In this document: positions 8,045 through 49,655 of the stretch, in pieces
Position numbering within the stretch: position 1 is the stretch's first letter
Layout of the letters: the number at the start of each line of letters is the position of its first letter
Assembly: GCA_964444825.1 (NCBI GenBank)
Contig: CAYUIS010000003.1
Span: forward strand, 5,088 to 69,087
Direction: 5' to 3'
DNA: 64,000 bases
From: an uncultured Anaerolineales bacterium
GTDB lineage: Bacteria > Chloroflexota > Anaerolineae > B4-G1
Notes under the pieces: generated by a model
The model's database searches: none
What the model was told of the DNA's origin: nothing
Seen by the model: only the letters and a program-made list of their open reading frames with translations
Made by a program: the position numbers and the translations under genes

Positions 8045-8731
8045 TCAGCTCTCTGCCTCCGCAGCCAACGCCTCCCGATCAAGGAGAATGATACGCTGTC
8101 GATCCATCTTCAGCAGGCCGGCATCCGCAAAGGCTCGCAACGTGCGCCCCACCATATCCCGTACTGTCCCAACGTGAGCGGCGATCTCCTCCTGTGTCCA
8201 GCGCTGCGTAATCTTGTCTTCTTCGGCACGTTCCAAAAGGAAACGGGCCAGTCGTCCCCGCACCGTGCGCAGCGCCAGATCCTCGACCAAACCGGTCAGG
8301 TGATCCAATCGGTCAGCGAAATCTCGGAGGATAACCAGCGCCAATTCTCCACACTCACTCACCAGGCGACGAAAATCATCCCGCCTGATCGCGTAGAGGA
8401 TACTTGCGGTGATGGACTCGGCAGTGGCATGATTGACACCATCGGGCTGAAACGGTGGCACCGTATTGAACGTCTGCCCCGCCCCTAGCCTCGCCAGCAC
8501 CTGCTCCCTCCCCCCTGGCGAAAGACGGTAGATCCGCACCTCACCCTCTGCAACGAAAAAGACGGCCTCGCAGGGATCTCCCTCAAAGATAATGGTCTCA
8601 CCCGGGCCGTGGACACTGGTATACGCGACGCGACACATTCGACCTAACGCTTCCTCCGAGAGATCGGCAAACAGGGCGATACGACGCAGGGCCTCAGGTG
8701 TAGGATTCATTGTCTTGCCATTGTAGCCCAA
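8045..8731 (-). CDS. Crp/Fnr-family transcriptional regulator (cNMP-binding domain + C-terminal HTH)
   Basis: A cNMP-binding beta-roll (GETIIFEGDPCEAVFFVAEGEVRIY) is followed by HTH_Crp (TQEEIAAHVGTVRDMVGRTLRAFADAGLL). It is divergent from the Fur-family gene. An alternative start at the second Met would be 8710. Confidence 0.8.
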   Translation of the reverse strand: MGYNGKTMNPTPEALRRIALFADLSEEALGRMCRVAYTSVHGPGETIIFEGDPCEAVFFVAEGEVRIYRLSPGGREQVLARLGAGQTFNTVPPFQPDGVNHATAESITASILYAIRRDDFRRLVSECGELALVILRDFADRLDHLTGLVEDLALRTVRGRLARFLLERAEEDKITQRWTQEEIAAHVGTVRDMVGRTLRAFADAGLLKMDRQRIILLDREALAAEAES

Positions 8732-9556: not shown

Positions 9557-9652
9557 CCGGATTGATGTTGTATGTGGGGCAGGCTTTCCAGCTTGCCTAT
9601 GTGGCGAATTGAAAAGCCCGCCCCACCCTCATCTCGCAACTTGAACAAGCTT

Positions 9653-10870
9653 ATGAAGCACGTCATCGTTGGCAACGGCGTCGCGGGCGTTACGGCAGCT
9701 CAAAGCATCAGCCGAGCCGATCCCACGGCCAAAATACACATCTTTGGCGAGGAGCCCCATCTCTACTACCGCCGTCCCCTACTGTGGGAGTTTATCGCCG
9801 GTCAGATCGAGCAGGACGATGTCTACTTTCGGCCTGCCGATTGGTACGCCGAGCGCGGTATTCACCTCCATATGGGGATCAGAGCGACGGTGCTTGTCCC
9901 CTTGGAACATCGCCTGACCCTATCAGACGGGACGACGGTGACGTACGATCGATTGCTGCTGGCAACAGGTGGGCGCCCCTTTGTGCCCTCGTGTCAGGGA
10001 ACGGGCAAGCAAGGCGTCTTTACCTTGCGCACGCTTGATGATGCCCTGGCGATCAAGGCATACGCACAGAGGGTCTCCGCAGCAGTGGTCATCGGAGGAG
10101 GACTGCTGGGACTGGAAACGGCGCGGGCATTGCGCACTGCCGGTCTGGACGTGACGGTCGTCGAGTTCGCCCCCCACCTGCTGCCGCGCCAACTGGATGC
10201 CGAGGGAGCGGAGGTCCTGCAATCCCTGCTGGAAGCGCAGGGATTGCAGATTATCACGGGCGGCGCAATACAGGCCGTCCACGGAGATGAGCGCGCCGAC
10301 TGCATCTGGCTTCAAGACGAGCGTGTGGTGCCAGGAGAGCTAGTGATCTTTTCAACTGGCATCCGGTCAGAAGTTGCGCTGGCCCAGGCGGCAGGGCTAG
10401 AAGTCAAGCGCGGCGTCGTGGTAGACAAGCAGCTACAGACAAGCGCGGAGGATGTTCTCGCAGCGGGGGATGCCGCCGAGTTCGAGGGACGGGTCTACGG
10501 GATCATCCCGCCCGCCATCGAGCAGGCTAGAGTCGCAGCAGCCAATATGGTCGCGCCAGGAAGTGCCACCTACACTGGCACACTGCCCGCCACCACGCTC
10601 AAGGTCGCCGGCGCAGAGTTGACCTCTTTGGGAGAATCCATCGTCGATACGAATGAGGCCGTCCAATTGCGGCACACAGACTTCCCAGGTGGGCATTACC
10701 GCAAGTTCGTTCTGCGCGAGGGACGCGTCGTTGGCGCAATTCTGCTCAACGACAACGAGCGTGTCAGGCCCATCACCCAACTCATCGAGCAGGGTGTGGA
10801 CGTCTCAGCCAATTCTGATCACCTGTTGGACGACGACTTTGACCTGAAATCACTGCTACAGGCCAGCTAG
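9653..10870 (+). CDS. FAD-dependent pyridine nucleotide-disulfide oxidoreductase, NAD(P)H:rubredoxin oxidoreductase-like
   Basis: Two dinucleotide-binding folds (VIVGNGVAGVTAA and VVIGGGLLGLETARAL) in the NADH oxidase / rubredoxin reductase architecture. It lies directly downstream of the rubredoxin gene. Confidence 0.7.
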   Translation: MKHVIVGNGVAGVTAAQSISRADPTAKIHIFGEEPHLYYRRPLLWEFIAGQIEQDDVYFRPADWYAERGIHLHMGIRATVLVPLEHRLTLSDGTTVTYDRLLLATGGRPFVPSCQGTGKQGVFTLRTLDDALAIKAYAQRVSAAVVIGGGLLGLETARALRTAGLDVTVVEFAPHLLPRQLDAEGAEVLQSLLEAQGLQIITGGAIQAVHGDERADCIWLQDERVVPGELVIFSTGIRSEVALAQAAGLEVKRGVVVDKQLQTSAEDVLAAGDAAEFEGRVYGIIPPAIEQARVAAANMVAPGSATYTGTLPATTLKVAGAELTSLGESIVDTNEAVQLRHTDFPGGHYRKFVLREGRVVGAILLNDNERVRPITQLIEQGVDVSANSDHLLDDDFDLKSLLQAS

Positions 10871-10917
10871 GAACTGGCTAATCCCAAAGAACATATTCAT
10901 TGAGGAGGTGCACTTGA

Positions 10918-11421
10918 ATGCAGAAAATGACCAAGGATAATCTGGAAGCAGCGTTCGCTGGTGAGAGCCAGGCGCACATAAAGTACCTGATCTTTGCCGA
11001 TAAGGCGGAGAAGGAAGGTTTCGCCAACGTGGCCCGCCTGTTCCGCGCCACCTCTTACGCCGAGCAAGTACACGCCACCAGCCACTTTAGGACGTTGAAG
11101 GGCGTGGGCAAGACGGCGGACAACCTGGGCGCCGCCATCGGCGGTGAGACCTACGAGGTGGAGGAGATGTATCCTGCCTTCATAGCCATGGCCAAAGAAC
11201 AGCAGGAAAAGGCCGCCGTCCGGTCTAACGAGTGGGCGATGGAGGCGGAGAAAGTGCATGCGGCCCTGTACGGCAGGGCCAAGTCCTCGGTGGAGGCAGA
11301 GAACGACACGGATATCGGTCAGGTTTACGTCTGCTCCGTCTGCGGATGGACTGGAGAGGGCGAACCCCCCGACGAGTGTCCCTTGTGCAAAGCCAAGAAG
11401 GAGAATTTCGTCGCCTTTTAA
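10918..11421 (+). CDS. rbr: Rubrerythrin (diiron four-helix-bundle domain + C-terminal rubredoxin-like CxxC..CxxC domain)
   Basis: The N-terminal ferritin-like domain carries E..H motifs (AGESQAHIKY, YAEQVHA). The C-terminus reads CSVCGWTGEGEPPDECPLCKAKKENF. Confidence 0.85.
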   Translation: MQKMTKDNLEAAFAGESQAHIKYLIFADKAEKEGFANVARLFRATSYAEQVHATSHFRTLKGVGKTADNLGAAIGGETYEVEEMYPAFIAMAKEQQEKAAVRSNEWAMEAEKVHAALYGRAKSSVEAENDTDIGQVYVCSVCGWTGEGEPPDECPLCKAKKENFVAF

Positions 11422-11603
11422 CCAGTCACTGGCCTACACGACTGGTGGGGCACCCAGATAGCCGCACTGGCTCCCGGGCATTCTTCATATAAGGAGAACA
11501 ACCTATGGCTAAAGAAACGGATTCCTGTGTACAGGCAGCGGCAGGGCCCTTGATGCCCGAACCAGTTGCTGCCGCAAGTGTGTCACCAAAGGAGGCAGTC
11601 AAG

Positions 11604-12218
11604 ATGACAACGGCAAGTGTGGGCAAAGAAGCGCCCGACTTTGAAGCCTCAGCCTATATCCCTGGCGAGGGTTTTAAGAATGTGAGGTTATCAGACTATC
11701 GAGGCCGATGGGTAGTGCTTTGCTTCTACCCCGGCGACTTTACCTTCGTCTGACCGACGGAGTTGTCGGCAGTTGCCGTCAGATACCCAAAGTTCAAGGA
11801 ACTGGGCGCAGAAGTCCTCGCCATGAGCACAGATAGCCGCTTCATCCACAAGATCTGGAACGAGGCAGAGTTGTCCAAGATGGTGGAAGGTGGCATCCCC
11901 TTCCCTATGCTCTCGGATGGGGGTGGGCGCGTCGGTAAGGTATACGGGGTACACGATGAGGCAGCAGGCGTGGATATCCGCGGCCGCTTCCTCATTGACC
12001 CTGACGGGGTCATCCAGGCTATGGAGGTGCTCACTCCGTCCGTGGGCCGCAACCCAGACGAGTTGATCCGCCAGCTCCAGGCCTTCCAGCACGTACGGGC
12101 GACCGGCGGTGCGGAAGTGACCCCCTCCGGCTGGACGCCCGGTAAGACCACCCTCAAGGTTGGTCCGCACCTGGTAGGCAAGGTGTGGGAAGTCTGGAAG
12201 CCAGGAGACGAGTCCTAG
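11604..12218 (+). CDS. Peroxiredoxin (AhpC/Prx family) with an in-frame UGA (11751-11753) at the peroxidatic Cys position; candidate selenocysteine-containing Prx
   Basis: ORFs 11505-11753 and 11763-12218 are in the same frame and separated only by one TGA. The sequence reads ...[14 protein letters not shown]-[TGA][11 protein letters not shown], and the universal Prx motif is FTFVCPTE. The TGA therefore occupies exactly the peroxidatic Cys codon. A strong RBS AAGGAGG lies upstream of ATG 11604. Confidence 0.7.
11754..11782 (+). promoter_or_regulatory. Candidate bacterial SECIS hairpin immediately 3' of the in-frame UGA
   Basis: The hairpin is UUGUCGGC-AGUU-GCCGUCAG (11763-11782): a 6-bp stem with one U-U mismatch and a G/U-containing apical tetraloop. 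The apex sits about 19-22 nt after the UGA, inside the window allowed for SelB-binding elements. An alternative stem GACGG/CCGUC spans 11756-11780. Confidence 0.35.
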
Positions 12219-12273
12219 TCGAGCACGGAGCCAGTGTGGCAATACCCTAACTGAAAGAGCATCACACGAGACA

Positions 12274-12777
12274 ATGGGTGAGAGAACTCGGAGCAACGTA
12301 TATACAGCCTTTGTGGGCGAGGCCAAAGCATACCATCGCCTGTTGGCCTTCGCCCGCAAGGCGGATGACGAGAGCTATGATCAAATCGCCAAGCTGTTTC
12401 GCGCTGTTGCTGCCGCCGAGGGTGTGCACGCCGAACGCCACCTGAAGTTAATTGGTGAGGCGATGGTGCGCAGCACCGAGGAGAACCTCCAATCCTCCTT
12501 CGAGCGGGAGACCACCGTCAACGAGGTCTACTACCCGCAATTCATCCGGGAAGCGGAGGAAGAGGGCGAGCCAGCAGCGGCGCTGACTTTCAGCCAAGCC
12601 CGAGACGTGGAGGAAGGCCACGCCGCGCTGTACAAGCAAGCGCTGAGCGCTCTGCTGCGCGACGAGACCCACGACTACCACGTCTGCCAGGTTTGTGGGT
12701 ACATCGCCGAGCGAGAAGCTCCAGATCAATGCCCGGTCTGCAACGCAAAGCGCGACAGATTTCGCTTGGTGACATAG
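12274..12777 (+). CDS. rbr: Rubrerythrin (second copy)
   Basis: A ferritin-like diiron domain plus the C-terminal CQVCGYIAEREAPDQCPVCNAKRDRF rubredoxin-like domain. Confidence 0.85.
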   Translation: MGERTRSNVYTAFVGEAKAYHRLLAFARKADDESYDQIAKLFRAVAAAEGVHAERHLKLIGEAMVRSTEENLQSSFERETTVNEVYYPQFIREAEEEGEPAAALTFSQARDVEEGHAALYKQALSALLRDETHDYHVCQVCGYIAEREAPDQCPVCNAKRDRFRLVT

Positions 12778-12789
12778 TGGGAGCAGGAG

Positions 12790-13314
12790 TTGAATATGGA
12801 ACTAGAGGGCAAACGTATTGCCATTTTGGCTGAGGATATGTATCAGGAACTGGAACTGTGGTATCCCCTCTTGCGCATGCGAGAGGCCGGCGCAGAGGCC
12901 GTCGTCGTGGGTATGCCCGGCGTGAGCGAATACCACAGCAAACACGGGTATCCAGTACAGGTGGAAGCCACCGCCGACGAGGTCTCGGCCGGCGAATTCG
13001 ACGCCGTCATCATTCCGGGCGGTTTCGCGCCCGACCGGATGCGCCGCCATCAGCCGATGCTTGGCCTGGTGAAAGGCGTGTTCGAGCGTGGCGGTATTGT
13101 CGCCGCCATCTGCCACGCCGCGTGGGTGCCGATCTCTGCGGGTATTCTAGAGGGCAAGCGAGCCACCTGCGTCTCGGCGATCAAGGATGACGTTATCAAC
13201 GCGGGAGCGACCTACGTGGATGCAGAGGTGGTGCAGGACGGCAACCTGATCACCTCTCGGGTCCCCAGCGACCTGCCCGTCTTTTGCCGTACCATCATCG
13301 CCGCACTGAAATAG
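12790..13314 (+). CDS. DJ-1/PfpI-family protein (class I glutamine amidotransferase-like; deglycase/protease)
   Basis: The nucleophile elbow AICHAAW is present. Motifs IAILAEDMYQELEL and VIIPGGFAPD fit the PfpI/DJ-1 fold. Confidence 0.8.
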   Translation: MNMELEGKRIAILAEDMYQELELWYPLLRMREAGAEAVVVGMPGVSEYHSKHGYPVQVEATADEVSAGEFDAVIIPGGFAPDRMRRHQPMLGLVKGVFERGGIVAAICHAAWVPISAGILEGKRATCVSAIKDDVINAGATYVDAEVVQDGNLITSRVPSDLPVFCRTIIAALK

Positions 13315-13380
13315 AGAACATAGTCACAGACAAACTTGCCAAAAGGAAACAGTAGTACACAACATGTGAGGAGGTAACTG

Positions 13381-13779
13381 ATGAGATTTGGAGACAGGAT
13401 TCAACAGGCAGACTGGAAGAAGGAAAAGCACGTCCCAGTCATCGAGTGCCCGGACGAGGTACAGGCCGGTGAACCATTCGAGGTGAAGGTTGGCCTGGGG
13501 AAAGAGATTGCCCATCCCAACACCACCGAACACCACATTAGTTGGGTCTCCCTCTATTTTCACCCTGAGGGCGACAAGTTCAGCTACGATGCGGGCCATT
13601 TTGAGTTCAACGCTCACGGCGAGTCGGCCGCGGGCCCCAACCAAGGCCCCGTCTACACGCATCACCAGGTGACAGCAACGCTGAGGATCAACAAGCCTGG
13701 CACGCTGTACGCTGTAGCTATGTGCAACATTCACGGGCTATGGGAAAGCAACAAGGAGATCAAAGTCAGCTCCATCTGA
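13381..13779 (+). CDS. sor: Superoxide reductase, 1Fe (neelaredoxin-type) desulfoferrodoxin family
   Basis: The hallmark EKHVPVIE motif is present, with His/Cys ligands (HPNTTEHHISW, CNIHGLWE). There is no N-terminal desulforedoxin Cys cluster, so this is the class II 1Fe form. Confidence 0.8.
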   Translation: MRFGDRIQQADWKKEKHVPVIECPDEVQAGEPFEVKVGLGKEIAHPNTTEHHISWVSLYFHPEGDKFSYDAGHFEFNAHGESAAGPNQGPVYTHHQVTATLRINKPGTLYAVAMCNIHGLWESNKEIKVSSI

Positions 13780-16084: not shown

Positions 16085-16105
16085 ACGGCAAGACCGGAGG
16101 AATTG

Positions 16106-17062
16106 ATGAATGACAAACAAGCACTAATAGATATGCTGAACGCCGATCTGCGGGACGAGCATGCATCTGTGATTCGATACTTGATCCACGCTTATCAAGT
16201 CGGTGAGGATACTTCGTTAGGAGCCATGCTCCTATCGATGGCCCGCGAAGAGATGTGGCACATGGATTGGCTGGCCGACGCCATCGGTGAAATGGGCGCG
16301 GAGCCGGACATGGCCCCAGGTTTGTATCCTCACGATCCAGCGTCGAACGCGTCCTTGCTGCGTTCGTACATAGAATGGGAAGACGGTTTGGTCAAAGCAT
16401 ATGCCGGCCAAGCTGAGCGAGTCAGTGACCCCGAGATCAAGAGGATATTGACACAGCAGAGCCTGGAGTCAGCCATCCACAGCCAGCGCTTTGCCTCAGC
16501 CCTGCAAAAGTTGGGCGTGGAGGGTGAAGAGCCGCTGGCTTGTGAGGACTCGGGTAAGTTTTCGCCTGACATGGTGCGGCGACTTCAGGATGAGATGACG
16601 GACGAGTACAAGCTGATGCTTCAACATCTGCGACACGCCTTCGTCTTTGAGCACGACCATCCAGAGTTTGGCGAACTGGAGCTTGTGGCCATGCGGCACA
16701 TGAAGCACATGTCTCACTTCGCTGAGGAGCTCGCAGAATCTGGCCACGAACCACAGTTCGAGCTACCCGACCTGGACATGAGCCAGTCGGCCGATGTGGC
16801 ACTACAATCAAATCTGGAATTGACCAAGGAAGCACAGGCACGATTCATCAACCTGAGTCAAGAACCTGAGCTGGCAGAACACCCCGGACTCAAACTGGAA
16901 GTCGAGAATATGGTCATCCAGGAAGAGTTCCTGACCGCTACCATTCACGAGTTGCAGGAAGAAGCGACCATCGAAGGAGAATCATCCTCTGAACCGCAAT
17001 TCGGAGCCCCGGGCCATCGTTCACCGGGTGATCTTACTGTCGGTAGCTTGATGAAAGAATAG
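16106..17062 (+). CDS. Tandem ferritin-like (bacterioferritin/rubrerythrin-like diiron) protein with a C-terminal encapsulin targeting peptide; encapsulin cargo
   Basis: Two four-helix-bundle ferritin-like halves each carry E..H and EE..H motifs (LRDEHASVIRYL, AREEMWHMDWL; FVFEHDHPEF, MRHMKHMSHFAEEL). A Gly/Ser/Pro-rich linker is followed by the C-terminal ...PGDLTVGSLMKE, matching the family-1 targeting-peptide consensus (LTVGSL as in M. xanthus EncB/C). The gene sits directly upstream of the shell gene. Confidence 0.7.
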   Translation: MNDKQALIDMLNADLRDEHASVIRYLIHAYQVGEDTSLGAMLLSMAREEMWHMDWLADAIGEMGAEPDMAPGLYPHDPASNASLLRSYIEWEDGLVKAYAGQAERVSDPEIKRILTQQSLESAIHSQRFASALQKLGVEGEEPLACEDSGKFSPDMVRRLQDEMTDEYKLMLQHLRHAFVFEHDHPEFGELELVAMRHMKHMSHFAEELAESGHEPQFELPDLDMSQSADVALQSNLELTKEAQARFINLSQEPELAEHPGLKLEVENMVIQEEFLTATIHELQEEATIEGESSSEPQFGAPGHRSPGDLTVGSLMKE

Positions 17063-17071
17063 GAGGTTAAC

Positions 17072-17887
17072 ATGAGTGACTATTTGATGCGTGACGACGC
17101 TCCCTTGAGCGTCAAGGAATGGGAGCGGCTGGACGAAATGGTGATCTTGGCAGCTCGACGTGTGCTGGTGGGTCGCCGGTTTATCAGTCTGGCCGGACCG
17201 CTCGGTTTTGGGACACAGGTGGTGCCACTGGACAAGGTCGAGGGCAGCGGCGCATGCCGCCACGATGCCGGCACCTGCACCGAAGATGATGTGGTACACG
17301 TCACTGGGCGTCAGTTCATCCCCATGACGCTCATCCACAAGGATTTCTTCTTGGCCTGGCGTGATGTCGAGGCCGCCCATCAATCCGGCGCAGGGCTTGG
17401 ACTGGGTCCGGCTGCGGCCGCCGCCGTCCGCGTGGCCCGGGCCGAGGACGAGATGATCTTCCAAGCGCTCCTGAATGCGGAAGGAAGGCAGACCGCGTCC
17501 CTAAAGAACTGGGAAACCTCTGGCAACGCGCTGATGAACGTCGTTGAAGCCCGTCAGGCCCTGGCCGATGCTGGCTTCTACGCCCCGTATGCTTTGGTCG
17601 TGAGCACCGGTCTGTATGCGGATCTCCAGCGCGTCTACAAGGGCTCTGGTCGACAGGAGCAGAAACTGGTGAGCAACATCGTTGATGGTGGCATCTTCCA
17701 ATCACCAGTGCTGGCTCCAAAGCAGGCGCTGATGATCTCCCAAGGCCCCCATCATCTGGATTTGGCGGTGGGGCAAGACATGGTCACCGCTTACCTGGGG
17801 CCAGAGGAAATGGATCACCGGTTCCGGGTGCTGGAGACTCTGGTTCTACGAGTCAAGCAGCCCGGAGCCGTTTGTGTTTTCGAATAA
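17072..17887 (+). CDS. enc: Encapsulin nanocompartment shell protein, family 1 (HK97 fold, linocin M18-like)
   Basis: A 271-aa protein that aligns along its whole length with T. maritima / M. xanthus encapsulins: N-terminus LSVKEWERLDE...LVGRRFISLAGPLGFG, mid YALVVSTGLYADLQ, C-terminus LAVGQDMVTAYLGPEEMDHRFRVLETLVLRVKQPGAVCVFE. Confidence 0.85.
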   Translation: MSDYLMRDDAPLSVKEWERLDEMVILAARRVLVGRRFISLAGPLGFGTQVVPLDKVEGSGACRHDAGTCTEDDVVHVTGRQFIPMTLIHKDFFLAWRDVEAAHQSGAGLGLGPAAAAAVRVARAEDEMIFQALLNAEGRQTASLKNWETSGNALMNVVEARQALADAGFYAPYALVVSTGLYADLQRVYKGSGRQEQKLVSNIVDGGIFQSPVLAPKQALMISQGPHHLDLAVGQDMVTAYLGPEEMDHRFRVLETLVLRVKQPGAVCVFE

Positions 17888-17925: not shown

Positions 17926-18393
17926 ATGGCTGTTTTCACTGCCGCCCAAGCACTTGAAATGGCAATGGAAATCGAAAAGAACGGCGAGGTCTTTTACCTT
18001 GCCGCCGCCGAGAAGGTCGACGACTCCGAAGTCAAAACCCTGTTCAAAGACCTTGCCATCCAGGAACAGGGACACTACCAGATATTCCAGAAAATGTTGG
18101 GAGCGGTAGAACCAGCTCCTGATCTACCTGCGGCTGAGTTCGACCAGTACGATTCCTACATCCAGGTCGCCCTGGAGAACGCACTGTTCGCTGGACCAGA
18201 CAAGGCTCTAGCGATGGCGGAGCAGGCCGCGGATCGAGAGACAGGGCTGCGGGCGGCGCTAGGCTTTGAGAAGGACACGATGCTGTTCTTCTATGACGTG
18301 CGTGAGATGGTGGCCGAATCAGACCGAGAGGCCATCTCCAACGTCATTCGGGAGGAGAAGAAACACATGCGTCGGCTGGCCAAGATGCTGTAG
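17926..18393 (+). CDS. Rubrerythrin/erythrin-like ferritin-like diiron protein (no rubredoxin domain, no obvious targeting peptide)
   Basis: A single four-helix ferritin-like domain with MEIEKNGEVFY...LAIQEQGHYQIF and a second E..H half (EKDTMLFFY...REEKKHMRRL). Confidence 0.6.
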   Translation: MAVFTAAQALEMAMEIEKNGEVFYLAAAEKVDDSEVKTLFKDLAIQEQGHYQIFQKMLGAVEPAPDLPAAEFDQYDSYIQVALENALFAGPDKALAMAEQAADRETGLRAALGFEKDTMLFFYDVREMVAESDREAISNVIREEKKHMRRLAKML

Positions 18394-18407
18394 AGGCCAA
18401 TATACCT

Positions 18408-19610
18408 ATGCGTCCCATTGAGATTACACCCGGCATATACTGGATCGGCGTCAATGATCGCACCACCGACCTCTTTGAGGGACTGTGGCCCATTACGCAG
18501 GAAGGCGTCTCCTACAATTCGTATCTGATTGACGATGAAAAGAAAGCCATCATAGACCTGTCCAAAGCCCTAAAGACGGACGAGTTCTTTGATCAGATCG
18601 ATCAGGTCACCGACATCTCTCAGTTGGACTATATCATCATCAACCATATGGAGCCAGACCACTCTGGCGTCTTGCGCACGCTGTTGAGAATAGCTCCCCA
18701 GGTAACTATCTTGGGCACCCAAAAGACCCGCTCGATGCTCGAATCATTCTACGGCATCACCAGCGGCGTTGAGGTCGTCCAAGACGGGGACACCCTCCAG
18801 TTGGGTCGACATAGCCTCAAGTTTGTCTACGCACCCTTCGTGCACTGGCCCGAGACGATGATGACGTATGAAACCAGCCAGGAGATACTGTTCTCCTGTG
18901 ACGCTTTCGGCAGCTATGGTGCCTTGCGAGGCAGTATTTTTGACGATGAGTATGACGATCCCGAGTTCTATGAGCAGGAGGCGCTACGCTACTATGTCAA
19001 CATCGTGTCCGTCTTTAGCAAGCCGGTTCTGAAAGCGATTGAGAAACTGGCCAACGTACCGGTCTCCATTATCGCTCCTTCCCACGGCCTCGTCTGGCGG
19101 GCGAATCCACAGCGTATCGTCGAGCTCTACAAACAATGGGCGGAGTATGCCACAGGCCCCACAGAATTGGGCGTCACGCTGATCTACGGCTCGATGTACG
19201 GCAACACTGAGAAGATGATGAACGCCATAGCACACGGCATCTCTCAGGAGAGCGTACCGCTGGCTATCTTTGACGTAAACCACACGCACGTCAGTTACAT
19301 TCTACCTTCTATGTGGACGCAGCGAGGGGTGATGGTAGGTGCACCCACGTACGAAGGATCGCTCTTTCCCCCGATGGCCCAGGTGCTGACTATGGCCGCC
19401 ACCAAGCGAGTTCGTAACAAGCAAGTGGCTCGCTTTGGAAGCTATGGATGGAGCGGAGGCGCGCAGCGTCACTTTGAGCGGCTGATCGAGCCGCTGCAGT
19501 GGGAGCTGACGGAATCGTTCGAGTTTGTCGGCAGCCCGTCAAACGAGGATCTGAGACATGGCGAAGAGTTCGGAGCCAGGTTTGCGAGGATTCTGAAAGA
19601 CACTGATTGA
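18408..19610 (+). CDS. Flavodiiron protein (class A FDP: metallo-beta-lactamase-like diiron domain + flavodoxin domain); O2/NO reductase
   Basis: The N-terminal MBL-like domain carries INHMEPDHSG. The C-terminal flavodoxin-like domain carries GVTLIYGSMYGNTEKM, the FMN-binding loop. The length of 400 aa is typical. Confidence 0.8.
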   Translation: MRPIEITPGIYWIGVNDRTTDLFEGLWPITQEGVSYNSYLIDDEKKAIIDLSKALKTDEFFDQIDQVTDISQLDYIIINHMEPDHSGVLRTLLRIAPQVTILGTQKTRSMLESFYGITSGVEVVQDGDTLQLGRHSLKFVYAPFVHWPETMMTYETSQEILFSCDAFGSYGALRGSIFDDEYDDPEFYEQEALRYYVNIVSVFSKPVLKAIEKLANVPVSIIAPSHGLVWRANPQRIVELYKQWAEYATGPTELGVTLIYGSMYGNTEKMMNAIAHGISQESVPLAIFDVNHTHVSYILPSMWTQRGVMVGAPTYEGSLFPPMAQVLTMAATKRVRNKQVARFGSYGWSGGAQRHFERLIEPLQWELTESFEFVGSPSNEDLRHGEEFGARFARILKDTD

Positions 19611-21047: not shown

Positions 21048-21131
21048 CCAGGTTAAGGGTGCTCGACAACCATCGGCAGCCAGCCACGTGGCTGACTGCC
21101 GACTATTACACAGACGTACAAGGAGGTATTT

Positions 21132-21422
21132 ATGTCAGAGGCAAAGGGGCACATAGAAGGATCCCAGGGAGATCGACGCACCGTGTTCTATGGATTATCT
21201 ACCTGCATCTGGTGCAAACGAACGCGCCAGTTCCTAGAAGACCAGCAGGTGGAATTCGACTATATTTACGTGGACAAGCTGAAGGGTGAGGAGAGAGAGG
21301 AAGCAGTCGAGGAAATCAAGCGCTGGAACAAAGCCGTGTCGTTCCCGACCATTGTAATCGATGATAAGGAATGCGTCATAGGGTACAAACCTGAGGAGAT
21401 CAAAAAGGCACTAGGACTGTGA
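21132..21422 (+). CDS. Glutaredoxin/thioredoxin-like CxxC protein
   Basis: Thioredoxin-fold motifs: TVFYGLSTCIWCKRTRQFLE ... FPTIVIDDKECVIGYKPEEI. The active site is CIWC. Confidence 0.6.
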   Translation: MSEAKGHIEGSQGDRRTVFYGLSTCIWCKRTRQFLEDQQVEFDYIYVDKLKGEEREEAVEEIKRWNKAVSFPTIVIDDKECVIGYKPEEIKKALGL

Positions 21423-21425
21423 ACT

Positions 21426-21785
21426 ATGAGTGAAGAAATCACCATCCCCCCTGATAGAGTAGACCGAGTCTACGAGAATCTGGACAAGTGGGCAGAGTCG
21501 ACCGGGTATCATCTCAATCCTGACCAAGAGTTTACCCGGCAACTGGTGGAAGGATTGCTCATCAATCGGCAGCGATACGGCTACCAGTCCTGTCCCTGCC
21601 GACTGGCATCGGGAGACAAGGACAGGGACAAAGACATCGTCTGCCCCTGCGCGTACCGCGATCCCGACCTGGAAGACTGGGGAGCCTGCTACTGCGCCCT
21701 ATATGTCTCGGATGAGGTCCTGCAAGGCGAACGTACGGTTCAGCCGATCCCGGAACGGCGGCCAGTGGAGAAGCAATTCCCGTAA
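21426..21785 (+). CDS. Ferredoxin:thioredoxin reductase catalytic-subunit-like protein (FTRc-like, 4Fe-4S + redox disulfide)
   Basis: Signature CPC...CPC...CYC arrangement ([41 protein letters not shown]). It begins 4 nt after the glutaredoxin-like gene and is in the same frame. Confidence 0.75.
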
Positions 21786-43585: not shown

Positions 43586-45283
43586 ATGACAGATCCAAAT
43601 GAGGTTCTAGGCACATTTTTCGGCGACGATGAATTCCCGGTCGAGTGGGAAAGCGAGGAAGAGAAGAGTCTGTTCTGGTTCTATGACGACAACCATTGCC
43701 CCCGTCCGATCTCGCCCATGTTCTGGAGCTTGAATGGCTGGTGGGGACCGACGCTGGATTATATGTACCGGCGTTTTGGCTTCCCCCTCGGCAAGGCGTG
43801 GATCGGCAAGCGCGTCAACGGCTACCTGTACAGCGCCATCGTGCCACGCGAGGCCGAGTCGGCAGGTATGCTTGGCCCATACTATATGTGGATCATGTCC
43901 ACCTACGCCAGCAATTTCCTGGACTGGTGGAATGACCGCTATCTGCCCGAAATCGCCCGCAACTTTGAATACCTGGACACCTACCCCACCGAGGAAGCCT
44001 CTCTTCAGGAATTGATGGTCTATCTGGAGGAAGCCATCGACATCCAGGAGCGGCACTTTCGTCTGCACTGGATCCTGAACCTGGCCCAATTCCAGTCCTC
44101 GATGGACCTCCAAGCGGCCGTGGGCGAGGTCGTCGGCGAGGTGGATCCCGCCCTCGTCGGTCGGATCTTGATCTCAATCAAGGACCGCAACTGGGACAGC
44201 CTGGATGCTCTTTGGAAGCTCAAGGAACAGGTGAAAGCCGATTCAGAGTTGAAGGCGACCTTTGAGGCTGGGGAAACCGCATCCGTCATCATACCCGAGC
44301 TGGAAAAGAGCGAAAAGGGCAAAGCCTTCTTGGCGGATGTGGAAGCCTACTGCAAAGAGTACGGCGTCAAGCCCTCATTGTACCCCCACGAATACGTCAA
44401 CAAGCTGTGGGTCGAGGACTTTACACCCGCCGTCGAGACAGTCAAGGGCTACCTGGCTGCCGATTACGACTTTCCTTCCGAGTACCAGCATATGGTGGAC
44501 GACCACTATGCGGCCATCGAGGAACTCAAGGCATTGGTGCCTGATACAGCTTCGCCTGAGCAACGGGAGAAACTGGAAACCGCCGTCGAACTGGCCACCC
44601 GTATGATGCCCCTCACTCCCGACCACCACTTCTACATGGATCAGGGCACATTCTCCCGAATGCGCCTCGTCCTGCTGGCGGTCGCCCGCCGCATGGTCAA
44701 AGAAGGACTGCTAAAGGACGCAGAGGACATCATGTTCCTGGAGTACGATCAGTTGCGCGCCTATGTGGCCAACCCTGATGGCTATGACGGTCAGGCCGTG
44801 ATCAAGGCTGGGCGCGGCGCCTACGACAAGGCACACCAGATTCGCCCGCGCGGCTGGGTCGGTACCGTGACCCACTGGGCGATGTACGAAGAGCCCTACC
44901 ACACCCTCTGGGGCTGGCCCCAGCGCTGGGAACGCGCCCAGGCAGGCGAAGATGTGATCGAGGGGGTGGTGAAAGGTCTTCCGGCCGCGGCTGGCGTCGT
45001 GGAAGGCGTCGCCCGGGTGGTAGTTGGGACCGAGGACTTTGACAAAGTGAAGCGCGGCGACATCCTGGTCTGCATCATGACCAACCCAGCCTGGGTGGTG
45101 CTCTTTAGCAAGGTCAAGGGCGTGGTCACCGACACCGGGGGCGTGCTGTGCCACACGGCCGTCGTGGCGCGCGAGTTCGGTATCCCGGGCGTGGTGGGAA
45201 CCGGCGACGCGACCCATCGCATCAAGACGGGCGATCACATCCGCGTGAACGGCAGCACCGGCATCGTCGACATCTTGGCTTAG
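43586..45283 (+). CDS. PEP-utilizing enzyme family protein, phenylphosphate synthase PpsA-like (substrate-binding region + C-terminal phospho-histidine mobile domain)
   Basis: The C-terminal PEP-utilizers domain reads GDILVCIMTNPAWVVLFSKVKGVVTDTGGVLCHTAVVAREFGIPGVVG and carries the conserved catalytic His. It lacks the N-terminal ATP-grasp (PPDK_N) domain, which is encoded separately at 52827. Confidence 0.7.
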   Translation: MTDPNEVLGTFFGDDEFPVEWESEEEKSLFWFYDDNHCPRPISPMFWSLNGWWGPTLDYMYRRFGFPLGKAWIGKRVNGYLYSAIVPREAESAGMLGPYYMWIMSTYASNFLDWWNDRYLPEIARNFEYLDTYPTEEASLQELMVYLEEAIDIQERHFRLHWILNLAQFQSSMDLQAAVGEVVGEVDPALVGRILISIKDRNWDSLDALWKLKEQVKADSELKATFEAGETASVIIPELEKSEKGKAFLADVEAYCKEYGVKPSLYPHEYVNKLWVEDFTPAVETVKGYLAADYDFPSEYQHMVDDHYAAIEELKALVPDTASPEQREKLETAVELATRMMPLTPDHHFYMDQGTFSRMRLVLLAVARRMVKEGLLKDAEDIMFLEYDQLRAYVANPDGYDGQAVIKAGRGAYDKAHQIRPRGWVGTVTHWAMYEEPYHTLWGWPQRWERAQAGEDVIEGVVKGLPAAAGVVEGVARVVVGTEDFDKVKRGDILVCIMTNPAWVVLFSKVKGVVTDTGGVLCHTAVVAREFGIPGVVGTGDATHRIKTGDHIRVNGSTGIVDILA

Positions 45284-45398
45284 GAATAGGATTCGAACCC
45301 AGCTTTTTCGGTCCTTACACGCAGAATGGGTCTGGGGAGAACCAGTGCCCCGGACCCATGTTTTGGACGGATGGGTTCCTTATGAAAGGTCACAGACT

Positions 45399-47276
45399 AT
45401 GAAATCAGGATACACAGGGAAGGTACTACAGATCGATCTGAGCGATGGAACAGTCGACGTGGAACCGTTGGACGAAACCTTTGCCAAGACCTACATCGGC
45501 GGGCGGGGCTTTACGTCGAGGCTGCAATACGACCTCATCCCCAAACAAGTCGACCCCCTCGGACCGGAGAACGTGCTGATCATCGCGCCCGGTGCGTTGA
45601 CGGGCACGTCGGCGCCCTCTGCCGCACGGTTCGTCGTGGCCGGACGATCCCCGCTGACCGGGATCCTTGGGGATGCCAACTCGGGTGGATTCTTTGGCGC
45701 GATGCTCAAGCGGGCCAGTTACAGTCTCGTCCTGATCCGTGGCCAATCGCCACACCCGGTCTACCTCAAGATCGACGACGACGAGGTGGAGCTGCGGGAT
45801 GCACGCCATCTGTGGGGCAAGGACGTGCACGAGACCACCGACGCCATCCAGGCGGAAGGGCGAGGATTCCACGTCGCCGCTATCGGTCAGGCCGGCGAAA
45901 ACCTGGTCCGCATAGCGGCGATCATCGCCGACAAAGATCACGCTGCGGCGCGGACCGGCCTGGGGGCCGTGATGGGCGCCAAGCGGTTGAAGGCCATTGC
46001 TGTGAGATCGAGGAAAGACTTTCCCTACCGTGACCGGACTGCTTTCAAGGAACTGGTTGACGAGCTACTAGAGATCGAGCGAAATGACAGGCGGGCTCGG
46101 GACTTTTCTGCGCGTGGGACGCTTGGCACGCTGATGGACCATCACTCGGCCATCGGAGCGATGAACACGCGTAACTATCAGTATGGTCAGTTCGAAGGTA
46201 AGGAACAGATCGATGGTCAAGCCCTCTCGGCGGAGTACCTGGTGCGGACGACCGGTTGCTACCGCTGTTCGTTGCGGGCCGACCGGTATTGTCGGGTGGA
46301 AAACGGCGAATTCGCCGGCGTCGAGGTCGGTGGACCCGAGTACAGCACAGCCGTGGCCCTGGGTTCGGGCGTGGGGGTCGACCACATCCCCGCGATCCTC
46401 AAGGGCAACGACCTAGCCAACCGGTATGGACTGGACACAATAGACCTGGGGGGCGTGATAGCCTTCAGCATGGAGCTGTATCAGCGAGGTATCCTCAGCA
46501 AAGAGGAGGCCGACGGCCTGGATCTGACGTGGGGCAACTACCACGCGATGCTAGATTTGATCGAGCGCATTGCCTTCCGGGAGGGGCCCTTTGCCGACCT
46601 GCTGGCCAACGGCGTACAAATGGCGGCACAGGAAATCGGGCGCGGTGCGGAGCGGTATGCGGTGCACGTTAAAGGTATGACCCCTGCGCCACTCGACGCA
46701 CGCCCCGTCAAGGTCTACAACTTTCGCTATGCGGTCTCACCCCGAGGCGCCGACCACCTGCGCATCTCCTGTCCGGGCGGCTATGCCCTGGACGAGCTTC
46801 CAATCCTTGAGGCGGCGGAGAAGCTGCGATACTGGCAGGGCATCATCGCCGTCCCGGATCTGATGGGGGTGTGCAAATTCGCCTACACATACTACACCGA
46901 GACGCCGGACGTCGCCATGCACAGGACGCTTGACATCGTTCCCCGGCTCTACACAGCAGCCACCGGGCTCGAGCTCACACGTGATGAACTGCTCGACACC
47001 GCCGCTCGGGTCACCAATATCGAGCGCGCCCACAACTGCAGGTTGGGTCTAACCGCTGCCGACGACACGCTGCCGCCGCGTTTCACACAAGACCCGATGC
47101 CTGCCGGGCCTTCCAAGGGCAAGGTGTACGACATCTTGGAGCCGATGAAAGAAGCGTGGTACACGGTTCAGGGTTGGAACACGGAGACCGGAATACCGAA
47201 ACGTGATCGGCTAGAGGAACTGGGGATTGGAGACATCGCCGACGATCTAGAACATCACGGTGTAGACATTTCCTAG
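45399..47276 (+). CDS. Aldehyde:ferredoxin oxidoreductase family (tungstopterin) enzyme, copy 1
   Basis: The N-terminal AOR_N domain aligns with P. furiosus AOR (GKVLQIDLSDGTVDVEPLDE..YIGGRGF...VDPLGPENVLIIAPGALTGTSAPSAARF.VAGRSPLTG...ANSGGFFG). The full length is about 626 aa. Confidence 0.85.
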   Translation: MKSGYTGKVLQIDLSDGTVDVEPLDETFAKTYIGGRGFTSRLQYDLIPKQVDPLGPENVLIIAPGALTGTSAPSAARFVVAGRSPLTGILGDANSGGFFGAMLKRASYSLVLIRGQSPHPVYLKIDDDEVELRDARHLWGKDVHETTDAIQAEGRGFHVAAIGQAGENLVRIAAIIADKDHAAARTGLGAVMGAKRLKAIAVRSRKDFPYRDRTAFKELVDELLEIERNDRRARDFSARGTLGTLMDHHSAIGAMNTRNYQYGQFEGKEQIDGQALSAEYLVRTTGCYRCSLRADRYCRVENGEFAGVEVGGPEYSTAVALGSGVGVDHIPAILKGNDLANRYGLDTIDLGGVIAFSMELYQRGILSKEEADGLDLTWGNYHAMLDLIERIAFREGPFADLLANGVQMAAQEIGRGAERYAVHVKGMTPAPLDARPVKVYNFRYAVSPRGADHLRISCPGGYALDELPILEAAEKLRYWQGIIAVPDLMGVCKFAYTYYTETPDVAMHRTLDIVPRLYTAATGLELTRDELLDTAARVTNIERAHNCRLGLTAADDTLPPRFTQDPMPAGPSKGKVYDILEPMKEAWYTVQGWNTETGIPKRDRLEELGIGDIADDLEHHGVDIS

Positions 47277-47295
47277 CACAAGGTGGACAACGCCA

Positions 47296-47709
47296 ATGAA
47301 ACGTATCTATGTGATCGAAGATCTTTGCAATGGGTGCCGGCTGTGCGAGACGTTCTGTTCGTCGCTGGCTGACGGGGTGTTCGACGTGGCCTATTCATCC
47401 TCGGATCGGACACGGGCCCGGGTCAGGGTGATCAAGATCCCTGGAGAGGAAAAGGACATCCCCATAGTAGATTGTGATGGCCGATGCGTACGTCCACTGA
47501 ACAGCGACGGCGGCCCAACCTGCGTCGCCGTATGCCCAACTGGCGCTCTGATCTACGCGGAACAGGAAAACGCCGTCGCCAAGCGCCTGGCGTTGGAGGA
47601 GGCCAGAGAGGCACACGGCCTGTTCAAGGTGATCGCCCCCTGGAAGTGGCCCCTGCCCTGGCGAAAGCCTGAGACGACCCGAGGCAACAGCGGCGGAGAA
47701 GGTGCATGA
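47296..47709 (+). CDS. 2[4Fe-4S] ferredoxin-like protein (AOR electron-transfer partner)
   Basis: CNGCRLCETFC and CDGRC...CVAVCPTGAL Cys clusters. It is translationally coupled to the second AOR (ATGATG overlap at 47706). Confidence 0.7.
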   Translation: MKRIYVIEDLCNGCRLCETFCSSLADGVFDVAYSSSDRTRARVRVIKIPGEEKDIPIVDCDGRCVRPLNSDGGPTCVAVCPTGALIYAEQENAVAKRLALEEAREAHGLFKVIAPWKWPLPWRKPETTRGNSGGEGA

Positions 47710-49655
47710 TGGCGCGAGATAACAAGGTTCAAACAATCCTGCGGGTGGATCTATCCACCGGCAGCAGTCACCTGGAGGATCTTCCGGAGGAATGGACGCG
47801 CAAGTATCTCGGCTGCCGGGGGATCAACGCACGGCTGCTGTTTGACGAGGTTCGACCCGACACGGATCCACTGGGACCTGACAACGTGCTTTTCTTTGGC
47901 ACCGGCCCGATGGATGGTGTGCCGATCGGCATGGGGCGCATGTCGGTGGCCTGCAAGTCGCCTCGGGGCAGCGTAGCGGAGGGGAGCTTTGGTGGATTCT
48001 TTGGCCCCGAGATGCGGAGAGCCGGTGTTGACTACGTGGCGATTCGAGGTAAGGCAGATCACCCGATCTACCTAAGCATCGAGGACGGAACAGTCGAGAT
48101 TCGAGACGCCACTCACCTGTGGGGCCTCAAGACAGACGAGACAGACGCAGCACTCCATCGTGAGTTCTCCGATCCAAACGTCCAGCTCCGCTACATCGGC
48201 CCTGCCGCTGAGAACCTGGTGCATGCCAGCCCCATCTTTGGGAACCTCAACAACAGCGGGGGGCGTGCCGGGTGTGGTCAGGTGATGGGCAGCAAGCGGC
48301 TGAAAGCCATCGCCGCACGCGGATCGCAAGGGATTCGAGTTGCCGATTACGACGCCTTCCTGGAAGCCTACAAAGTACTAAGGCAGCGGTTGGATTTGGC
48401 AACGTCGCGGGATATGTGGACACCGGTCTGGTCCACCTACGGCGCGCCTGTGCTGGCCCGGCTGTTCCCCGACCTGGGCAACCTGATGACGCGCAACGCT
48501 CAGGAGATGAGCTGGGATTATGATAAAGCCATGCGCATCTCCGGTGAGCCCTACCTCGACGACTATGTCACCAAGGCAAAGGCCTGCTACTGCTGCCCGT
48601 GGCCCGCCTGTCAGAAGTTACACCAGATCAAATCGGGCAAGTACCAGGGCTTTAAGGGCGGCAACTACTGGGCTGCCCAGCCGGTAGCGTTTGGGTCGCT
48701 GATCGACAATGACGATCTGGATTTGATCCTGGTGATGTCCGGGCTGTGCAACCAATATGGACTGGACGTCTTTCACGTCGGCTACACGCTGGCTTGGGCG
48801 ATGGAGTGTTTTGAAAATGGCATACTGACCGAGACGGACACGGACGGGCTGGAACTCCGGTTCGGTTGCCCGGACAAGGACGGTCTGGTCGATCTGATCC
48901 GCAAGATTGCCCTACGGGAGGGTTTTGGCGATCTGCTGGCACAGGGGTGCGCCGAGGCCGCCAAGATCGTGGGCCAGGACTCCGAGCGGTTCTGCCTGTC
49001 GGTGAAGGGCCAGGAGCTGGAGGGGATTCCCCAGCGGAACCTCTACATGGTGGCTCTGGGCATCGCTGTGAGCGAGGTAGGCCCTGATCACACACGCTGG
49101 TATCCGCCCTATCCCTGCAATCCCGGCCTCATCTCGAAGGAAGAGCTGGCAGAACTCGGTATCGATCTGGACCTGCGGCTGGCGTTCCAGGGGCGTAACC
49201 CGGAACAAAAGGGGAGATTGCTGCGCTGGTTCACTATCAGCCGGGCCGTCGTGGAAAGCATGCCCAGTTGCGTGTTCCTGGTGCGGGATACCCTGGGGCT
49301 GGACATGCGGCCCTGGTGGAATTTGTTCAACGCGGCGACCGGGGCTGATCTGGACTATGCCGAGTTCATCTTGGCGGGCGAGCGGCTCATGAACCTGGAT
49401 CGGGCGTTCAACGTACGTGAGGGATACCGTCGGGCCGACGACCGTCCTCCGATCCGAATGTCCACCGAGGATGTGCCTGGCTTTGGATACCCCAAGCTGG
49501 CTCCAGAGGTGTTTGAGCCGATGTTGGACGAATACTATGAGGCAAATGGGTGGAGCGCGGACACATCGATTCCAACACGTGGTAAACTGGAGGAACTGGG
49601 AATAAGCGACGTGGCCGACGAGCTCGACGCATTGGGAATCGAGGTGGCACAATGA
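47706..49655 (+). CDS. Aldehyde:ferredoxin oxidoreductase family (tungstopterin) enzyme, copy 2
   Basis: The same AOR_N/AOR_C architecture (TILRVDLSTGSSHLEDLPEE..YLGCRGINARLL...DPLGPDNVLFFGTGPMDGVP...). It is 649 aa and diverges from copy 1. Confidence 0.85.
   Translation: MMARDNKVQTILRVDLSTGSSHLEDLPEEWTRKYLGCRGINARLLFDEVRPDTDPLGPDNVLFFGTGPMDGVPIGMGRMSVACKSPRGSVAEGSFGGFFGPEMRRAGVDYVAIRGKADHPIYLSIEDGTVEIRDATHLWGLKTDETDAALHREFSDPNVQLRYIGPAAENLVHASPIFGNLNNSGGRAGCGQVMGSKRLKAIAARGSQGIRVADYDAFLEAYKVLRQRLDLATSRDMWTPVWSTYGAPVLARLFPDLGNLMTRNAQEMSWDYDKAMRISGEPYLDDYVTKAKACYCCPWPACQKLHQIKSGKYQGFKGGNYWAAQPVAFGSLIDNDDLDLILVMSGLCNQYGLDVFHVGYTLAWAMECFENGILTETDTDGLELRFGCPDKDGLVDLIRKIALREGFGDLLAQGCAEAAKIVGQDSERFCLSVKGQELEGIPQRNLYMVALGIAVSEVGPDHTRWYPPYPCNPGLISKEELAELGIDLDLRLAFQGRNPEQKGRLLRWFTISRAVVESMPSCVFLVRDTLGLDMRPWWNLFNAATGADLDYAEFILAGERLMNLDRAFNVREGYRRADDRPPIRMSTEDVPGFGYPKLAPEVFEPMLDEYYEANGWSADTSIPTRGKLEELGISDVADELDALGIEVAQ

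Follow-up and report, generated by a model that had tools for sequence, protein, structure and literature searches.

Positions 11505-12218 of the window, by which we mean the whole 64-kb stretch of DNA that was analysed, very probably encode PrxU, a selenocysteine-containing peroxiredoxin of the Prx1/AhpC fold in which an in-frame UGA would be decoded as selenocysteine (Sec). Inspection of the forward strand reveals one frame of 237 codons, Sec83 included, that is broken solely by the TGA at 11751-11753. The original prediction had proposed a Sec-for-Cys peroxiredoxin (Prx) at this site, and that reading now draws support from conservation of the TGA, a covarying SECIS hairpin, purifying selection and the score obtained with the PrxU equivalog model. 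The two open reading frames on which the prediction was built (11505-11753 and 11763-12218, 258 nt apart from start to start) do share a frame with a single TGA between them. The codons downstream of the TGA are intact as claimed, although they number 154 where 155 had been counted. Standard gene callers split, truncate or mistranslate prxU. Its correct product would be a 237-aa (or 204-aa) selenoenzyme, which would imply that an Anaerolineae-like anaerobe decodes Sec. The features discussed below are listed here with the evidence for each.

11491-11507, + strand: upstream Shine-Dalgarno sequence AAGGAG (11491-11496) and ATG 11505, the probable start of the long isoform (sequence, related loci)
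11505-12218, + strand: prxU long reading frame, with stop codon TAG at 12216-12218 (translation, NF040737, Pfam AhpC-TSA and 1-cysPrx_C)
11526-11528, + strand: Cys8 codon TGT in the N-terminal motif, a candidate tethered resolving cysteine (alignments of Sec genes)
11589-11606, + strand: internal Shine-Dalgarno sequence AAGGAGG (11589-11595), 8-nt spacer and ATG 11604, the probable start of a 204-aa isoform
11721-11723, + strand: Cys73 codon TGC in VVLCFYPGD, 10 residues before Sec (invariant in family alignment A1)
11751-11753, + strand: in-frame TGA, the predicted Sec83 codon and peroxidatic residue in PGDFTFVU, which matches PxxxTxxU (translation, homologous TGAs)
11764-11781, + strand: putative SECIS hairpin UG-U-CGGC-A-GU-U-GCCG-U-CA (fold energy, covariation, consensus properties)
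12120-12122, + strand: Thr206 codon ACC at the usual position of the resolving Cys (alignment to 4fh8_A)

Family assignment and the active-site TGA

Comparison with NCBIfam assigned the protein to the PrxU equivalog NF040737 ('peroxi_PrxU', named there a thioredoxin-dependent peroxiredoxin) with a score of 373.8 bits, well over the 270 required (E=3.4e-112), where the match spans residues 7-233 of the protein and positions 3-231 of the 233 in the profile. The runner-up NCBIfam model, AhpC TIGR03137, reached 181.8 bits and lies under its cutoff of 272. With Cys placed at the TGA, Pfam returned AhpC-TSA (PF00578, E=1.6e-37) together with a 1-cysPrx_C domain, and the best solved-structure matches (E=2e-47 to 1e-43) have the Prx1/AhpC fold. 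An AlphaFold2 model of a Cys orthologue (mean pLDDT 83) is confident in its core. The TGA lies within GDFTFV[TGA]PTE and yields the active site P76-G-D-F-T80-F-V-U83. It aligns to the peroxidatic Cys of FTFVCPTE both in solved 2-Cys Prx structures and in true Cys orthologues, which upholds the earlier claim that the stop falls exactly on the catalytic Cys. Inspection of the family alignment indicates that the PxxxTxxU pocket is intact and the Arg conserved.

To place this codon among the other TGAs of the window, we used a coding-potential scan trained on the window's Pfam-supported genes. Apart from an ordinary gene boundary at 21420, it alone among the in-frame TGAs of the 64 kb has coding signal both before and after it. 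Related loci were then drawn from two sources through the family alignment, 80 from species-representative genomes and 80 from metagenome contigs, with CFYPGDFT as one of the patterns used to fetch them. TGA occupies the homologous codon in all 160 loci (167 TGAs plus the window's own), where these are the best 80 of ~600 candidates per collection, such that the uniformity describes the closest relatives and not the whole family. Because it is the sole such TGA in the scan and recurs in all 160 closest loci, its position inside a Prx is not due to chance. The original prediction had named a frameshift or disrupted downstream region in close relatives as the alternative to a conserved TGA; 160/160 of the closest loci keep the TGA. 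One locus (L056) carries two TGA-bearing prxU copies, and the lone TGT among the fetched loci comes from L080, in a second and distantly related Prx.

The fetched genomes, again the best 80 of ~600 candidates, are mostly Anaerolineae/Chloroflexota, and the nearest relatives among the best 80 per collection are Anaerolineae/Chloroflexota MAGs at 81-82% identity. The PrxU clade is nonetheless widespread, with TGA in 80/80 of the closest species-level genomes (the best 80 of ~600 candidates) and representatives in many phyla. TGA carriers also occur in Thermodesulfobacteriota, Syntrophaceae, Nitrospirota/Nitrospiraceae, Ignavibacteria, Planctomycetota/Planctomycetia, Acidobacteriota, Myxococcota, Zixibacteria and Krumholzibacteriia, and the isolate Desulfothermobacter acidiphilus is among the TGA-bearing relatives.

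Protein databases present the same codon differently. Among the best 120 of thousands of protein homologues, 46 read FTFV-W-PTE and 25 read FTFV-C-PTE. Since the W of one checked protein (P0003) is a TGA in the DNA of all five of its contigs, W in the database proteins is read as a gene-caller artefact. True Cys orthologues do exist, namely those of Aggregatilinea lenta and Desulfoferula mesophila and three further MAG or contig sequences, all of which translate exactly. Alignment with Cys Prx homologues, the comparison proposed at the outset, confirmed the TGA column. The TGA genes and the Cys orthologues make up a classic Sec/Cys pair.

The hairpin downstream of the UGA and probable Sec decoding

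The hairpin behind the UGA consists of a stem (11767-11770 with 11775-11778), a closing pair (A11771-U11774) that encloses G11772 and U11773, and two outer pairs (11764-65 with 11780-81). U11766 and U11779 (pair 16-29) form a mismatch in the window, where 70% of orthologues pair. The 18-nt hairpin core folds at -7.2 kcal/mol (z=-3.5), and 0/200 shuffles fold equally well. The single-sequence folds of 40 nt (11751-11790, -10.0 kcal/mol) and 63 nt (-20.4 kcal/mol) did not differ significantly from shuffles (z=-1.36 and -0.56, respectively).

Covariation was assessed in an ungapped alignment of 150 distinct orthologous 51-mers around the TGA, in which the hairpin occupies columns 22-27/30-35. Because RNAalifold bars a 2-nt loop, it returned just the innermost three pairs of the stem, and an explicit pair count was used instead. 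On this explicit structure, 94.1% of cells pair across the 150 distinct sequences. On four of five measures, 0/500 column shuffles reach the observed value; on the fifth, the number of pairs changed on both sides, 14/500 do so, and slid controls are all far lower. The closing pair 27-30 occurs as AU (71 sequences), GC (70) or CG (3), pair 24-33 occurs as GC (116), AU (27) or GU (6), and the apical GU is invariant across 157 unique sequences. Because both positions of the closing pair are synonymous third-codon sites (in Ala and Val codons), its covariation acts at the RNA level. For the PrxU clade, the alignment supplies a clean SECIS model backed by covariation.

A bacterial SECIS (bSECIS) is described by four properties (PMC13188914): an upper stem of 4-16 bp capped by a loop of 3-9 nt, a UGA-to-loop distance of 16-37 nt, a minimum free energy (MFE) of -7.5 kcal/mol or below, and a loop in which N1 and N2 pair and whose first two positions include a G, most often with G or U after it. 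All four are present in the window hairpin. Its loop AGUU (11771-11774) sits on the stem CGGC/GCCG, with the two outer pairs below, and follows the pattern N1-G-U-N2 with N1 and N2 pairing. The UGA-to-apical-loop spacing is 17 nt (11754-11770) and is the same in all ungapped orthologues, and the 40-nt fold lies below the energy bound at -10.0 kcal/mol, where the 18-nt core by itself gives -7.2 kcal/mol. The original prediction had pointed to the region around the TGA as the place to look for a SECIS, and the covarying hairpin 17 nt downstream conforms to the published consensus. Compared with the bSECISearch model and E. coli fdhF, the window hairpin likewise lies right after the UGA and has a 4-nt N1-G-U-N2 loop, 17-nt spacing and a stem of at least 4 bp, but its upper stem is short, with 4 bp, a mismatch and then 2 bp. 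It also lacks a bulged U like that of fdhF. Rfam scans of the whole window at the gathering threshold, and of 11700-11850 at a permissive one, returned no SECIS family; no bacterial SECIS model was among the matches, and the scans are hence uninformative on this point. Among Cys orthologues, 1/5 retains an intact hairpin (five core pairs and GU) versus ~95% of Sec genes, a loss that would be predicted from relaxed constraint once the TGA is gone.

Scans for tRNAs and Rfam families detected tRNA-His as the sole tRNA of the 64-kb window and no tRNA-Sec, and no selA, selB or selD is present among the window ORFs classified by Pfam. One of the 120 related loci scanned (L065, from an Anaerolineaceae MAG) does hold a tRNA-Sec, placed 41 nt ahead of its prxU (found by ARAGORN, with RF01852 at 67.3 bits versus a gathering threshold of 47), which lends indirect support to Sec decoding. 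Beside this tRNA-Sec, selA, selB and selD were sought and none was found. We infer that Sec is decoded in this organism, and the consensus conformity and covariation of the hairpin suggest that it serves as a SECIS that recruits SelB. In the proposed mechanism, the UGA at 11751-11753 would be read as Sec as the hairpin at 11764-11781, which has an apical GU, recruits SelB with Sec-tRNA(Sec).

Other readings of the TGA differ in what they predict for the codons behind it. Were Sec decoding recently lost, the TGA would terminate translation and the gene would be a relic that yields a truncated, inactive fragment, a scenario with which both the Sec machinery missing from the 64-kb window and the U-U mismatch at the base of the hairpin are compatible. 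Selection past the TGA indicates otherwise. Eight orthologues were compared over 128 codons after the TGA (Nei-Gojobori), of which L003 was dropped for saturated dS, and the window gene has dN/dS of 0.06-0.21 and dS of 0.75-2.25 relative to the seven close orthologues that remain, which rules out both simple termination and a pseudogene of long standing. The 154 intact downstream codons keep every invariant residue of the family, and the hairpin core and its GU are intact, such that any loss would need to be very recent. We regard a relic as very unlikely, and the earlier judgement that a pseudogene is the less likely reading is borne out by the intact codons and the dN/dS values. Readthrough that needs no SECIS, with Cys or Trp inserted by near-cognate decoding instead of Sec, is compatible with the sequence taken alone, but the TGA is strictly co-conserved with a GU-loop hairpin at a constant distance from it, as SelB-dependent recoding predicts. 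A homologous enzyme has moreover proved to be a selenoprotein (PMC13188914, citing Sohling et al. 2001), and near-cognate insertion is highly improbable here.

The W found in 46/120 of the best database homologues would suit a reassigned code in which TGA specifies Trp or Gly (codes 4/25), yet these W calls come from short contigs, where code 4 merely lengthens the ORF, and Trp would be unable to replace the peroxidatic residue. Because 8/18 of the Pfam-supported window genes end at TGA, each at a normal length, the genetic code is standard; no other internal TGA is coding on both sides, and the orthologues span many standard-code phyla. Reassignment is thus exceedingly unlikely. A TGA is also one base from the Cys codons TGC and TGT, and two independent identical contigs (L001, L002) stop short of it, so a sequencing or assembly error might be considered. 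The same TGA is nevertheless present in 160 independently assembled loci along with a co-conserved SECIS, which Cys orthologues tend to lose, and this leaves next to no room for an error at the codon.

Candidate resolving thiols, the N-terminal extension and two probable starts

With Sec decoding as the preferred reading, the active site is that of a Prx whose catalytic cycle would depart from the usual one. The EVCPxxW motif of typical 2-Cys enzymes reads EVTPSGW, with Thr206 in place of the resolving Cys, and across 167 Sec genes this position is T in 133, M in 22 and C in 3. Because Thr206 replaces the C-terminal resolving Cys, PrxU is unable to follow the typical 2-Cys cycle. In the mechanism that we propose, the Sec83 selenolate, seated in the PxxxTxxU pocket, would attack peroxide and be converted to a selenenic acid, a step that is established Prx and GPx chemistry. 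The oxidised Sec83 would most likely be resolved by a thiol and finally reduced by thioredoxin, as suggested by the NCBIfam name. Candidates for the resolving thiol are Cys8, on a disordered tether of 30-36 aa, Cys73, or the reductant itself, where the invariance of Cys73 arises partly by construction, CFYPGDFT having served as a retrieval pattern.

Cys8 lies in a segment that the original prediction had left outside the gene. That prediction placed the start at ATG 11604 behind a strong ribosome-binding site. The site itself is confirmed as AAGGAGG at 11589-11595, but the gene start is most likely 11505 rather than 11604. A Shine-Dalgarno sequence of at least 5 nt and a start codon lie upstream of the conserved Cys in 138/149 related loci, with the start 7 codons before the Cys in 120. 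The 33 residues gained in this way hold the motif D-[GS]-C-V-[KQ]-P-A-x-G-P-[IL], which is present in 160/167 Sec genes, and the NF040737 model takes in the extension. Cys8 is invariant in three family alignments (A1, A3 and A4), and its codon is TGT in 87 genes and TGC in 62. Because the Cys is kept while synonymous sites vary freely, the extension is read as a translated and selected peptide. Cys8 is located 30-36 residues (median 33) ahead of the VG motif at which the Prx core begins, across a linker of variable sequence, and in the AlphaFold2 model of the Cys orthologue the N-terminal motif has a pLDDT of ~60 and the linker <50. Mutual exclusivity of the N-terminal Cys with the canonical resolving one was also looked for, and no signal emerged, since the canonical Cys is nearly absent from Sec genes.

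The internal site has its own pattern of conservation. A Shine-Dalgarno sequence of at least 5 nt precedes an internal ATG, GTG or TTG by 4-12 nt in 146/156 loci, versus 54/679 for the remaining in-frame ATGs of these genes. Positional tests of codon choice reveal that Glu at codon -4 is encoded by GAG in 99/101 cases, versus 47% GAG elsewhere in the same genes, that Lys at codon -5 is AAG in 49 and AAA in 4, and that Lys at codon -1 is AAA in 40 and AAG in 25. From -14 to -9 the nucleotide profile reads AGGAGG, spaced 8 nt from the internal start. By these comparative measures, ATG 11604 appears to be a conserved internal start whose Shine-Dalgarno sequence is kept at the RNA level. Genes that are naturally short-only occur (e.g., L033, L069 and L077), as does a long-only, secreted Cys form without the internal Met (L171). 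The PrxU of Eubacterium acidaminophilum is reportedly ~203 aa long with Sec at position 47, which matches the short isoform in size, whereas the conserved ORF and the NCBIfam model have ~33 more residues, among them the invariant Cys.

As the simplest reading, we hypothesise that two isoforms are made and that Cys8 is a candidate tethered resolving thiol. It is possible, although we advance this tentatively, that prxU is a dual-start gene in which the long form uses the Cys of its D-G-C-V-K-P-A-x-G-P-I tether to resolve or protect Sec83, and the short form, begun at ATG 11604, goes without the tether; the two might co-assemble in Prx oligomers or be used under differing conditions. The conserved tethered N-terminal Cys and the conserved internal ribosome-binding site are the only potentially new biology at this locus. 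If true, the tether and internal start would define how a Sec-peroxiredoxin without the canonical resolving Cys completes its cycle. The portions of the PrxU literature that were retrieved mention neither a tethered Cys nor an internal start.

Relation to known systems and gene neighbourhood

Sec-containing Prx proteins had been described in the original prediction as rare, which is not what three sources report, where they are among the commoner bacterial selenoprotein families (PMC13188914, PMC1794560, PMC1088965). A Sec-Prx with the TxxU motif, from E. acidaminophilum, is among the experimentally verified prokaryotic selenoproteins (Sohling et al. 2001, cited in PMC13188914). A 2006 genome survey counts 12 members (PMC1794560), and the Sargasso Sea survey counts 43, which makes Sec-Prx its second most abundant family (PMC1088965). 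The window's prxU is accordingly a routine member of an already known kind and can be annotated automatically. It shares with the E. acidaminophilum PrxU the AhpC/TSA fold, a TxxU motif with UGA, a SECIS directly downstream and an anaerobe as host, and differs in that the two hosts belong to different phyla.

Typical 2-Cys Prx enzymes (4fh8, human Prx2 1qmv and AhpC 1we0) have in common with the window PrxU the PxxxTxx[C/U] pocket, the Arg and the C-terminal domain. In contrast to them, PrxU would carry Sec for the peroxidatic Cys and has Thr for the Cys of EVCPxxW (EVCPAGW in 4fh8_A), and it adds both an N-terminal, Cys-bearing tether and a Cys at -10. Mammalian MsrB1 is likewise a Sec enzyme whose resolving Cys is placed elsewhere than in its Cys homologues (PMC1278935); its fold and substrate are unrelated, and it serves as an analogy only, for the idea of a Cys8 tether. 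Eukaryotic Prx4 (3qpm, 3tjj) was considered as a homologue of the extension, where phmmer pairs Cys8 of PrxU with the N-terminal Cys of Prx4 at near-equal spacing to the core. Despite this likeness, a profile built only from the extension retrieves none of the Prx4 chains at E<=10, and homology to the Prx4 N-terminus was rejected.

Promoter and terminator scans around prxU gave nothing above chance. The surroundings of the gene are an anaerobe's oxidative-stress cluster, in which prxU lies between two rubrerythrin genes, with an NROR-like flavoprotein/reductase upstream and DJ-1/PfpI and superoxide reductase genes downstream. Within 8 kb these are followed by a flavodiiron protein, another rubrerythrin-like gene (the third) and an encapsulin that neighbours a ferritin-like gene. 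Parts of this cluster recur beside prxU in 6-14 of 99 related loci.

Two starts of prxU and its database annotation

Inspection of the 5' end of the selenocysteine peroxiredoxin gene prxU reveals two sites at which translation could begin:

11491-11606: paired ribosome-binding sites and starts, in frame and 33 codons apart, conserved in 150+ related loci

The upstream start adds a peptide, D-G-C-V-K-P-A-x-G-P-I, whose invariant Cys is carried on a tether of 30-36 aa. Conservation of the internal AGGAGG acts on the RNA: where codon -4 encodes Glu, it is GAG in 99 of 101 cases. As read from sequence, this double arrangement suggests long and short isoforms of the protein. A profile built from the N-terminal extension only (alignment A4) gave a single marginal PDB match (E=0.048), to 8b9z_s, where it falls on the peptide CVKPSSGPVGP in the mitochondrial complex I subunit NDUFV3; this is probably a chance match because the motif is short.

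Mis-annotation of the PrxU family at the Sec position and at the start is a systematic artefact. Among the best 120 database homologues (P0001-P0120, of thousands returned), 46 have Trp entered where Sec is expected, R, L, S or G occur there as single cases each, and many of the other homologues were called from the internal start. For P0003, the sole Trp protein examined at the DNA level, the Trp codon is TGA in five contigs; the Trp entries therefore look like the outcome of gene calling on short contigs with TGA read as Trp.

tRNA-Sec and duplicated prxU in related loci

Two related loci carry additional features:

L065, 5864-5959: tRNA-Sec, anticodon UCA (Rfam RF01852, 67.3 bits), Anaerolineaceae MAG JACKCG010000008.1
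L056, 1916 and 7258: two TGA-containing prxU copies on one contig, Deltaproteobacteria MAG JAGXTA010000046.1

The tRNA-Sec lies 41 nt upstream of prxU in L065, the only one of 120 related loci scanned in which it was seen, and none of selA, selB and selD is among the genes flanking it. The L056 copies are ~5.3 kb apart, each with a separate SECIS hairpin.

Gene neighbourhood of prxU

The window holds the following gene groups:

8045-8731 (-): divergent Crp/Fnr-type regulator
9572-13779 and 17926-19610: anaerobe-type oxidative-stress island
16103-17887: encapsulin shell gene (Linocin_M18, E=1.6e-62) and ferritin-like-domain protein
~21100-21785: small thioredoxin/glutaredoxin-like ORF, then ferredoxin-thioredoxin reductase homologue
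43586-45283 and 52827-53780: split PEP-utilising/PPDK-like genes, near the AOR-family genes
45345-49655: two aldehyde:ferredoxin oxidoreductase genes (tungsten/molybdopterin AOR family)
47296-47709: small Cys-rich ORF between these two

The island runs from an NROR-like pyridine-nucleotide oxidoreductase, whose C-terminal domain is of the rubredoxin-reductase type, through rubrerythrin, prxU, a second rubrerythrin, DJ-1/PfpI and a 1Fe superoxide reductase (desulfoferrodoxin family) to a rubrerythrin-like protein and a flavodiiron protein. Parts of it again adjoin prxU in the related Anaerolineae MAGs L008, L010, L011, L015 and L090.

The thioredoxin/glutaredoxin-like ORF ends in ...ECVIGYKPEEIKKALGL at TGA 21420, which looks like an ordinary stop, and the catalytic beta-chain homologue (PF02943, E=7e-24) follows in the same frame, 3 nt past it. 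The two form a possible ferredoxin-dependent disulfide reductase pair, which could feed thiol peroxidases.

The encapsulin pair probably makes up a system with an encapsulated, ferritin-like cargo. It is located within the oxidative-stress region, and the ferritin-like-domain protein (319 aa) is encoded directly upstream of the encapsulin gene.
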